NCBI RefSeq assembly: GCF_016903815.1
Contig: NZ_CP069973.1
Source of the DNA: Escherichia coli
GTDB taxonomy: Bacteria > Pseudomonadota > Gammaproteobacteria > Enterobacterales > Enterobacteriaceae
Strand: one strand, 5' to 3'
DNA length: 64,000 nucleotides
Part shown: piece by piece, positions 18,001 through 21,000 of the stretch
How positions within the stretch are numbered: the first letter of the stretch is position 1
How the letters are laid out: each line of letters starts with the position of its first letter
Position numbers: made by a program

Positions 18001-21000
18001 CTGGCAGCAGGCGAAAGTAGCGCGTAATGGCCTTGATGAACTGATGAAGCGCCCGGTGGATCAGCCGGAACACGGCAAACTGGTGCATAAAGCGGTGCTG
18101 CACGGCAATTATCAGTTCAGCAACGCTATCTTTTATTACGACGAAGAAGAGAAAATTGCCGATGTGGCGATTGGCAAACTCAACATTCAGGCCGGAGAGA
18201 AAATCGCCATTCTTGGGCGCAACGGCGCGGGTAAATCAACGCTACTGCAAATGCTCGCCGGAATGCGTATCGCCCAGCAGGGGCAGGTGCTGCTGGATAA
18301 CATCAGCATCGGTCAGCTTGATCCGGCGGATCTGCGCCGCGACATGGGGCTGCTGAGCCAGACCGGGAGACTCTTTTTCGGTTCGCTGCGGGAAAACCTG
18401 ACGATGGGGATGCCGGAAGCCAGCGATGAAGATATCGAACGCGCGTTAACCCTCAGCGGGGCGCTGCCCTTTGTGCAGAAGCAGAAAAACGGCCTCAACT
18501 ACATGATTCAGGAAGGGGGATTTGGCCTCTCTGGTGGTCAGCGGCAAACGCTGCTGCTGGCGCGGCTACTCATCTCTCAACCCAATATCGTGCTGCTCGA
18601 TGAACCCAGCGTCTCGCTGGACGAAATGGCGGAAGCGTATTTAATCGAACAACTGAAACAGTGGATTGGGCATCGCACGCTGGTCATCGCCACTCACCGC
18701 ACGGCGATGCTGCAACTGGTGGACCGCATTATCGTGATGGATCAGGGGCGGATTGTGATGGATGGCGCGAAAGAGGCCATTTTGCGTGAACAGAGCGAAC
18801 CCACGACGCGACGGGTGGTGTTGCAGGAGAAGAATAAGGGGTCTGCCGCATGAATGGACAACTGCAATACAACCGTGGCCTGACTGAACCCCGCCTGCCG
18901 CGTTCGGCGCTGGCGGTACGCGTTACCGCTGTGATGCTGCTCTGTTTTCTCGGCTGGGCGTGGTACTTCCAGCTTGATGAAGTCACCACCGGCAGCGGCA
19001 CGGTAGAACCTTCCGGGCGCGAACAGGTGGTGCAGTCGCTGGAAGGCGGAATTCTGTATCATCTCGACGTCAAGGTTGGCGATATTGTTGAACAGGGCCA
19101 GCCGCTGGCGCAGCTTAACCGCACCAAAACGGAATCCGACGTCCAGGAAGCAATGTCGCGGCTGTACGCGGCGCTGGCAACCTCGGCGCGGCTGCGGGCG
19201 GAAGTGAGTAATAAACCGCTGGTCTTCCCTGACGAACTGAATAAATTCCCCGAACTTATCGAGTCGGAAACGGCGTTGTACAACACTCGCCGCGACGGGT
19301 TGAACAAAGCCACCACCGGGCTGACGCAGGGGATTAGTCTGGTCAACCGTGAACTGGCGATGACCCAGCCACTGGTCAAACAGGGGGCGGCGAGCAGCGT
19401 CGAAGTGCTGCGCCTGCAACGTCAGGCCAATGAACTGGAAAACAAACTCAGCGACGTGCGCACGCAATACTACGTACAGGCGCGCGAAGAGTTAGCGAAA
19501 GCCAATGCGGAAGTAGAAACCCAGCGTTCGGTGATCCGTGGACGGGAAGACTCCCTCACCAGGCTCAACTTTACCGCGCCGGTGCGAGGCATTGTTCAGG
19601 ACATTGACGTCACCACGGTTGGCGGCGTTATTGCCCCCGGTGGTAAACTGATGACCATCGTGCCGCTGGATGAGCAACTGCTGATCGAGGCAAAAATCTC
19701 CCCGCGCGATGTGGCGTTTATCCATCCGGGGCAAAAATCGCTGGTGAAAATAACCGCCTACGATTACTCCATCTACGCCGGCCTGCCGGGAGAAGTGGCG
19801 GTGATATCACCAGACACCGTGCAGGATGAAGTGCGGCGCGATGTTTATTACTATCGGGTGTACATTCGCACTTTCAGCAACCATCTGGAAAATAAACATA
19901 AACAGCAGTTTCCGATATTTCCCGGCATGGTGGCGACGGTCGATATCCGCACCGGCAAAAAAAGCGTGCTGGATTATCTGTTGAGACCCTTTAATAAAGC
20001 ACAGGAGGCGTTGCGCGAACGATGAACATTAGCGATGTAGCAAAAATTACCGGCCTGACCAGCAAAGCCATTCGCTTCTATGAAGAGAAGGGGCTGGTGA
20101 CGCCGCCGATGCGCAGCGAAAATGGTTATCGAACCTACACGCAGCAGCATCTCAACGAACTGACCTTACTGCGCCAGGCGCGCCAGGTGGGCTTTAACCT
20201 GGAAGAGAGCGGCGAACTGGTGAATCTGTTTAACGACCCACAGCGTCACAGCGCCGATGTAAAACGGCGCACGCTGGAGAAGGTAGCGGAGATCGAACGG
20301 CACATTGAGGAGCTGCAATCCATGCGCGACCAGCTACTGGCGCTGGCGAATGCCTGCCCTGGTGATGACAGCGCCGACTGCCCGATTATCGAAAATCTCT
20401 CCGGCTGCTGTCATCATCGGGCGGGGTGAAAATCAGTTAATCCCCGTTTGCACCGAAAGAATATGCTGCAAACTTTCTACCATTATGCGCCCCGATTGAA
20501 ATAAGCCTTCCTGGATTTCGTTGTTAACATTCACAGCGTGAACCAGGGAGGCTAATAACACCACTTGCAAGAAGGCAAAAATAAACGCACCGATAATCAT
20601 AATATGCGTCAGGGGGATTTTCCTTTGCTCCTTCATTTTAAATAACCCACAAACTGACCTTCCTTCATTAAGGCGACTTTTCCCGTGTGGTGATAAACAA
20701 TGACGTTATAAAGACCTGACTGATAAACAGTGGCATCTTTATTGTCTTCATCAATTGCACATAATGAATCATTGAGATAAGCAAAGTTCTTACTGCTCAT
20801 TCTAAAGGTCATGCCAAATCCTTTATAAATAGATTTTTTAGCGGCCTGGGCATGTTGTGCGGCTTCTGCATTTTTAAATGCCTGCGCCTCGGATGCACTT
20901 AAAATAGCCGTCTGACGCTGTTGTTCTGCGAGATAACAGGTGTCATGGCTGACGCCCTGCGCCTGGCAATCTGCGATGCGGGAAGTGGGTGAACTACAGC

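Follow-up and report, generated by a model that had tools for sequence, protein, structure and literature searches.

Giant repetitive adhesins of type 1 secretion systems (T1SSs) are encoded in several well-known bacterial loci, including siiABCDEF of Salmonella pathogenicity island 4 (SPI-4), BapA/bapBCD and the LapA/lapEBC locus of Pseudomonas. A locus of this kind was analysed here in a stretch of 64,000 nucleotides of Escherichia coli DNA (the window; RefSeq assembly GCF_016903815.1, contig NZ_CP069973.1), where the gene for a T1SS membrane-fusion protein (MFP) runs directly into cueR, which codes for a copper-responsive regulator. In common with the SPI-4, BapA and LapA loci, it combines a giant repetitive adhesin with genes for an ATP-binding cassette (ABC) protein, an MFP and a TolC-like protein, but differs in what follows, as a metal regulator stands behind the MFP gene in none of the 75 orthologues examined outside Escherichia. 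The junction itself resembles the textbook ATGA overlaps of trpE-trpD and trpB-trpA of E. coli, at which translation is coupled. The geometry of four shared nucleotides between same-strand neighbours is identical, and recurs here at the ABC/MFP junction. Unlike the trp pairs, however, cueR is functionally unrelated to the MFP gene, has its own mapped promoter and a full Shine-Dalgarno (SD) sequence, and is linked to its neighbour in a single genus.

In enterohaemorrhagic E. coli O157:H7, O-island 28 (OI-28; tolC28, rtxA28, rtxB28, hlyB28 and hlyD28) encodes a T1SS/RTX-adhesin system that is needed for early adherence (Niu et al. 2025, PMC12758282). RstA and Ca2+ activate the tolC28 promoter that drives its operon, and expression of all five genes is reduced 3- to 5-fold in an rstA mutant (PMC12758282). 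OI-28 of the O157:H7 strain EDL933 occupies the same ybaT-cueR locus, with the same gene order as the strain analysed here, and the two are ~98% identical over the MFP/cueR tract (19780-20030) and ~96% identical in cueR. Strain 7/2 (NZ_CP023820.1), a human faecal isolate, matches the window at 100% identity and supplies the flank upstream of it, where copA (on the minus strand), glsA, ybaT, a frameshifted TolC-family gene and siiEA follow one another. The locus thus belongs to OI-28, with tolC-like, giant adhesin, ABC and MFP genes between ybaT and cueR in synteny with EDL933. The siiEA gene of strain 7/2 is a single intact gene of 20.8 kb, while its tolC28 is frameshifted (L003 5532-6886). 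In EDL933 the opposite holds, the adhesin being split by an internal stop and tolC28 being intact (L084 4354-24513). Different carriers have thus disabled different parts of the system.

The overlap between the MFP gene and cueR is genuine, and it is conserved in Escherichia. By virtue of this overlap cueR is physically joined to the 3' end of the OI-28 T1SS operon (tolC28, siiEA, ABC, MFP), and it is probably expressed as a unit of its own. An overlap combined with a promoter inside the upstream gene is ordinary architecture and represents no new kind of mechanism. As the first-pass annotation of the window had read it, the MFP stop codon (TGA, 20023-20025) overlaps the cueR start codon (ATG, 20022-20024). 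The MFP gene ends in ...GAA CGA TGA AC..., so that the start codon takes its A from the last MFP sense codon and its other two bases from the stop, and the 4-nt ATGA is common to both genes. The same overlap is present in the RefSeq annotation of strain 7/2 and EDL933, and in four further E. coli strains, E. ruysiae, E. whittamii and Escherichia sp. E1V33, while the 36-37 bp 5' of the cueR ATG are invariant in all Escherichia sequences compared. The close packing described for the upstream genes was also correct. The adhesin stop (TAG, 16685-16687) is separated by 'aga' from the ABC start codon at 16691, and the ABC and MFP genes overlap by ATGA (18850-18853). The position of cueR as fourth in the row has to be amended, as it is physically the fifth open reading frame (ORF), with a TolC-family gene (a pseudogene here, lying outside the window) preceding the adhesin.

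A start site for cueR within the MFP gene has been mapped in EDL933. Cappable-seq under eight growth conditions assigned to cueR (gene 2800, 604847-605254) the plus-strand gTSS 604687 in 8/8 conditions (Zehentner et al. 2023, PMC10469882 Table S5). This position, which is given in the supplementary table and is undiscussed in the paper, corresponds to nucleotide 1012 of the MFP gene and lies 160 nt 5' of the cueR ATG; the EDL933 locus tags agree with those of the publication and the gene coordinates were verified. As EDL933 and the window are identical over 19780-19892, a tract which covers both the promoter elements and the start site, the mapping could be transferred to position 19862. The prediction that any cueR promoter must lie within the MFP coding sequence is therefore borne out by the EDL933 start and the identity of the two sequences. 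A custom sigma-70 position weight matrix (PWM) gave the combination ATGAAG-17-TACTAT a score of 7.55, which exceeds the 99.9th percentile for positions across the ABC and MFP coding region, with a predicted start at -161. Its -10 hexamer, TACTAT, is formed by Tyr-Tyr codons of the MFP motif DVYYYRV, and both hexamers are invariant in eight Escherichia sequences. The publication on OI-28 makes no mention of cueR (0 occurrences), and therefore describes neither its overlap with the MFP gene, nor the promoter embedded there, nor the K-12 relic discussed below (PMC12758282). A limited search of the literature found no account of the overlap, the Tyr-codon promoter, the K-12 relic or the loss of the -160 promoter in K-12, which is no proof that they are unpublished.

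Conservation of the DNA around the start site is consistent with its use. The ABC-MFP-cueR alignment of the window, EDL933, E. ruysiae, E. whittamii and Escherichia sp. E1V33 comprises 3739 bp with 388 variable columns. Its two longest invariant runs are 19996-20071 (76 bp), incorporating the SD sequence, the ATGA and the 5' end of cueR, and 19822-19892 (71 bp), incorporating the promoter and the start. Among E. coli genomes carrying the island, the 71-mer at the start site is identical in 623/959 (65%), compared to 94/833 (11%) for an adjacent control 71-mer. In three variant strains that were retrieved, the differences fall within the spacer and at positions -2 and +14, with neither hexamer touched.

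The sequence also provides for separate translation of cueR. The AGGAGG sequence, which is read as Gln-Glu-Ala within the MFP gene, is invariant in every Escherichia sequence compared, that of K-12 included, while at the same position the full AGGAGG occurs in one and GAGG alone in 32 of the 75 orthologues from other genera. The predicted fold of the 160-nt leader RNA is no more stable than those of shuffled sequences (z = -0.16), and a permissive Rfam scan of 18500-23500 (E-value up to 0.1) returned no match at the MFP/cueR junction. With an AGGAGG of its own and a leader whose folding is at chance level, cueR could be translated independently. In the proposed arrangement a constitutive sigma-70-type promoter within MFP codons would give rise to a cueR mRNA whose 160-nt leader consists of the MFP tail, and translation would proceed from the AGGAGG. 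On read-through transcripts of the operon, ribosomes ending MFP synthesis could re-initiate at the ATGA, so that operon transcription would be additive rather than required. The stop/start overlap at 20022-20025 has the form expected where translation is coupled, and both re-initiation at the ATGA and translational coupling of cueR to the MFP gene are possible on the basis of the sequence.

Several observations weigh against this assignment of the cueR promoter. The start was mapped in EDL933 and not in the strain of the window, and derives from the supplementary table of a high-throughput study. The -35 element is weak, matching three of six consensus positions, and a consensus promoter scan of 19400-20700 detected no plus-strand promoter at its threshold, the looser PWM being needed. 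The 71-bp run is only modestly exceptional next to other invariant runs of 68, 59 and 56 bp, and is suggestive but not decisive. Furthermore, the motif DVYYYRVYIR is kept in nearly all MFP orthologues across genera. A -10-like hexamer is thus an automatic by-product of a conserved Tyr motif in the protein, and part of the conservation of the invariant block, which falls within this motif, is attributable to amino acid constraint. Lastly, the cueR start given for K-12 in RegulonDB v10.5 (-19, with a 19-nt leader; the only K-12 value obtained, as quoted in PMC10469882) lies in sequence that the present strain also has, and island strains may contain a second, proximal cueR promoter that was not called by Cappable-seq.

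Among the alternatives to an independently expressed cueR, the one that survives best, though it is unlikely, is that cueR is a true distal cistron of the operon. It would then be supplied mainly by read-through from the tolC28 promoter and by termination-reinitiation at the ATGA, with CueR dosage following the RstA- and Ca2+-dependent activity of the operon. The physical arrangement is compatible with this. All ORFs are on the same strand with junctions that are 3 nt long or overlapping, no plus-strand intrinsic terminator was found in 19400-20700 and hence none between the MFP gene and cueR, the locus lacks the terminator-like hairpins seen after the MFP stop in other genera, and the five OI-28 genes respond jointly to deletion of rstA (PMC12758282). 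An operon member of this type would, however, have no promoter of its own, whereas the -160 start was called in all eight EDL933 conditions, the tolC28 start was missing in one of them and no other OI-28 gene had a start in 8/8. The full AGGAGG before cueR argues in the same direction, and 82% of E. coli lack the operon yet express cueR. The internal adhesin stop in EDL933 and the frameshifted tolC28 in strain 7/2 both favour polarity well before cueR, and linkage to the MFP gene is not conserved beyond Escherichia (0/75 orthologues). The first-pass annotation had proposed that cueR dosage is tied to adhesin-operon transcription if no promoter lies in the MFP gene. With a start of its own inside that gene such a link is unnecessary, and it is disfavoured as the main route, although read-through from the operon may be an additive input to CueR synthesis. 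A strong internal promoter in roughly the final 200 bp of the MFP gene, combined with an absence of read-through transcripts, had been named as the observation that would speak against the proposal; an internal start at such a distance was found, at -160. Regulation in the reverse direction was also considered. A search of the whole window for the CueR box (CCTTCCN6GGAAGG, two mismatches or fewer) gave three hits against 1.8 expected, none of them near the locus, and the window offers no sign of a site through which CueR would regulate the operon.

Less probable still is that the -160 signal is itself a by-product, either of pervasive initiation at an AT-rich run of Tyr codons or of a processing site, and that the working promoter is proximal, within the last ~90 bp as in K-12. 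The 19-nt leader listed for K-12 in RegulonDB v10.5 (in PMC10469882) would be in keeping with this, as would the presence of the last ~90 bp in all E. coli and the invariance of the final 36-37 bp. TAYTAY hexamers resembling a -10 element follow automatically from the YYY motif in all orthologues, and the paper reporting the -160 start lists >10,000 non-canonical starts (PMC10469882). Against this, the -19 start of cueR was called in 0/8 EDL933 conditions and the -160 start in 8/8, Cappable-seq enriches triphosphate ends rather than processed ends, and the PWM produced no convincing hit for a -19 start in either haplotype. There is next to no chance that the overlap is an annotation artefact, with the true cueR start further downstream and the genes not overlapping, considering that an NCBIfam equivalog aligns CueR residues 1-135 to profile positions 1-135, that the N-terminus MNISDVAK is common to outgroup CueR proteins with unrelated upstream DNA, and that the CueR of the window is identical to that of K-12 (100% by tblastn).

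The first-pass annotation gave cueR of K-12 an intergenic region of its own behind ybaT. A 124-bp spacer does separate the two genes, but most of it is a relic of the MFP gene. Over ~30 bp from the ybaT stop the spacer matches the DNA following ybaT in strain 7/2, while the remaining 92-95 bp correspond to the last 92-95 bp of the MFP gene, from which they differ by eight substitutions and a 1-bp deletion in an A-run. The spacer still translates, in two frames, as the MFP C-terminus, including ..VVAVDIRTGKK. Since this C-terminus is orthologous in 75 genes of other genera, the sequence was coding first and it is K-12 that carries the relic. The first-pass annotation had called for alignment with K-12 to place the island junction, and had allowed that shared upstream sequence in K-12 would move the junction further upstream. 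Such sequence is indeed present over the last 92-95 bp before the ATG, and the edge lies at ~19930, inside the MFP gene rather than at the cueR ATG. The deletion in the K-12 type amounts to ~25.8 kb, running from tolC28 to a point ~92% of the way along the MFP gene. Of 5426 complete E. coli genomes, 4463 (82%) have the K-12-type junction, 4439 of them at 99% identity or above, while MFP-type sequence is present in 959-961 (~18%). A junction that is near-identical in 4439 genomes indicates a single deletion event or haplotype. As the -160 promoter lies upstream of the deletion edge, it has been lost from K-12-type strains. One further E. coli strain, SCPM-O-B-8794 (L007 ~5040-5085), has kept the MFP gene with a 2-bp TG insertion ~70 bp before the stop, which frameshifts the tail. 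The DNA 3' of the insertion carries only two substitutions, with the SD sequence and the ATGA unchanged.

A PWM scan of the K-12 haplotype gave no promoter consistent with the -19 start, the best hits predicting starts at -40 or -86. The haplotype has derived substitutions from CTGGATTAT to CTTGAATAT together with a 1-bp deletion (K-12 L001 4930-4945, corresponding to ~19968-19979 of the window). These substitutions create TTGAAT, a possible -10 element by PWM with a predicted start near -40, while the deletion junction itself creates TATTAT; neither hexamer fits the RegulonDB -19 start. The cueR genes of the two types have also diverged, by 3.8% between the window and K-12 and 5.3% between EDL933 and K-12, compared to 4.5-4.8% between E. 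coli and E. ruysiae or E. whittamii. Divergence as large as that between species suggests either old, deeply diverged haplotypes or recombination at the locus.

The distribution of the junction points to its origin within Escherichia. In a scan with the MFP protein that covered one genome per species, adjacency of the MFP gene and cueR was restricted to E. coli, E. ruysiae, E. whittamii and Escherichia sp. E1V33. All 75 orthologues of other genera end in RER* (...EALRER*), and cueR was found in none of the downstream flanks retrieved, which usually spanned 4 kb. Their stop codon is TAA or TAG in 71 and TGA in four, and a GC-rich, terminator-like palindrome often follows it. For cueR, outgroup context was obtained from Pseudescherichia, Klebsiella and a third enterobacterium (L106, with a 138-aa CueR). 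In all three outgroups copA and cueR are divergent, and the cueR ATG lies ~10 nt past the copA -35/CueR box (GGTCAAG), the sequence reading ...GGAAGGTCAAG GGGGAAAG ATG. The cueR N-terminus and the downstream ybbJ-qmcA genes are the same as in Escherichia. The difference is that in Escherichia copA and cueR are kept apart by glsA-ybaT alone or by glsA-ybaT plus the T1SS operon, and all the native DNA upstream of cueR has been replaced. K-12 retains ...GGAAGGTCAAG beside copA, followed by glsA-side DNA. Taken together with the outgroup layout, this indicates that all the DNA between the copA promoter and the cueR ATG in Escherichia is inserted. Judged by the sequences, the MFP C-terminus and the CueR N-terminus are both native at the fusion. 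When MFP 3' ends (...CGGGAAAGATAA) are set against the 5' end of a Klebsiella-type cueR (...GGGGGAAAGATGAA), up to 9 nt match in register, compared to 7 nt or fewer in shifted controls.

A succession of events can be proposed from these comparisons. In the ancestral enterobacterial layout cueR, on the plus strand, would have lain ~10 nt from the -35/CueR box of copA, itself on the minus strand. Within the lineage of Escherichia the two genes would then have been separated by glsA-ybaT and the T1SS operon, the native MFP stop position being fused seamlessly to the native cueR ATG, probably via a 7-9-nt microhomology (GGGAAAGAT). Illegitimate recombination within such a microhomology would explain both the exactness of the fusion and the TGA stop. 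The single ~25.8-kb deletion would have followed later, taking tolC28 through most of the MFP gene and the -160 promoter, and leaving the 92-95-bp tail. It is a tentative, though credible, extension of this scheme that the cueR promoter has been replaced twice in Escherichia, by the operon fusion and then by the K-12-type deletion. Through the fusion cueR would have lost its connection to the copA-proximal region, its expression would have passed to a cryptic promoter made up of the Tyr-Tyr-Tyr codons of the MFP gene, and the penultimate MFP codons would have been tuned into a full AGGAGG. The cueR gene of K-12 would now depend on a third, derived arrangement, be it the -19 start, the CTGGATTAT to CTTGAATAT substitutions, or read-through from glsA-ybaT, which is copper-inducible. 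An enterobacterial metagenome contig (L104) has haem-uptake genes upstream of a CueR homologue that is 86% identical, and two extra genes before ybbJ. Judging by this contig, the cueR slot appears to be an insertion hotspot beyond Escherichia as well.

The most useful outcomes concern the K-12 relic with its promoter loss, and a warning about polar effects on cueR when hlyD28 or OI-28 is deleted. What is taken as the ybaT-cueR intergenic region in the K-12 reference is a gene relic, and K-12 lacks the cueR promoter of island strains (among them O157:H7; ~18% of complete genomes), so that cueR transcription data cannot be transferred between K-12 and island strains in either direction. If hlyD28 or OI-28 as a whole is cleanly deleted, as in the mutants for which adherence and colonisation phenotypes have been described (PMC12758282), the -160 start of cueR would be lost with it, and possibly the cueR ribosome-binding site. 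Copper homeostasis is thus a potential confounder in such mutants. If the promoter has indeed been replaced twice, island and K-12-type strains would set CueR levels differently, and the published hlyD28 and OI-28 deletion mutants may have altered cueR expression. The locus also provides a worked example of an accessory operon joined without a spacer to a core regulator, with conserved Tyr codons probably supplying the promoter.

The proteins encoded across the junction are readily classified (Table 1). The match to TIGR03375 places the ABC protein in an LssB-type T1SS family. The MFP is full length (391 aa, with the native C-terminus ...EALRER*), and its assignment as a HlyD-family T1SS MFP follows from a score above the curated cut-off and the adjoining T1SS ABC gene. 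CueR is recognised by a second profile in addition to that listed (TIGR02044, 207.5 bits vs 147.4). The adhesin is labelled 'BapA-related adhesin SiiEA' in the RefSeq annotation of strain 7/2.

Table 1. Genes and sequence elements of the MFP/cueR locus and its flanks; positions are those of the window
Feature	Position	Strand	Basis or remark
siiEA (rtxA28/rtxB28 of O-island 28), 3' part of giant T1SS adhesin	1..16687	+	ORF 11..16687; start outside window
hlyB28, T1SS ABC permease/ATPase	16691..18853	+	TIGR03375, 833.7 bits vs cut-off 693.1
hlyD28, T1SS membrane-fusion protein (MFP, HlyD family)	18850..20025	+	TIGR01843, 322.1 bits vs 208.65
71-bp substitution-free block, -40 to +31 of start	19822..19892	+	Window, EDL933, E. 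ruysiae, E. whittamii, E. sp. E1V33
Predicted sigma-70-type cueR promoter in MFP codons	-35 ATGAAG 19826-19831, 17-bp spacer, -10 TACTAT 19849-19854	+	PWM scan
cueR transcription start, 160-nt leader	19862	+	Transferred from EDL933 604687; A in GTGT[A]CATT
MFP 3' tail kept by K-12-type genomes as most of ybaT-cueR spacer	19930..20021	+	Right deletion edge about 19927-19937
Shine-Dalgarno AGGAGG for cueR, 13 nt before ATG	20003..20008	+	MFP codons Gln-Glu-Ala; direct reading
ATGA, cueR start codon over MFP stop codon	20022..20025	+	Direct reading, ORF listing, RefSeq
cueR, Cu(I)-responsive MerR-family regulator	20022..20429	+	NF007590, 308.6 bits vs 244, residues 1-135/135
Two small hypothetical genes	within 20430-23038	-	
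YadA-family autotransporter, 338 aa	21109-22125	-	
ORF, 120 aa	22492-22854	+	
naRNA4/CssrE, RF02564 (nucleoid-associated noncoding RNA)	22912-22989	-	Rfam, 71.9 bits vs gathering score 59.5

A second accessory segment (20430-23038) lies downstream of cueR and occupies precisely the interval between the stop codons of the convergent genes cueR and ybbJ. The segment is absent from K-12, where the cueR stop abuts that of ybbJ, and from the outgroups, where the two genes have a 4-nt convergent overlap. Its presence is independent of the T1SS island, with L093 carrying the MFP gene without the segment and H7 and H8 showing the reverse. With variable segments on either side, cueR and ~95 bp before it form a core islet of 0.5 kb between two adhesin-encoding regions. 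An antisense start has been reported 3' of cueR under three stationary-phase conditions (EDL933 605353, minus strand; ~20528 in the window) (PMC10469882). This start falls within the small convergent hypothetical gene and would produce RNA that extends into cueR in the antisense direction. The naRNA4 match is situated just upstream of ybbJ, at the edge of this right-hand segment.

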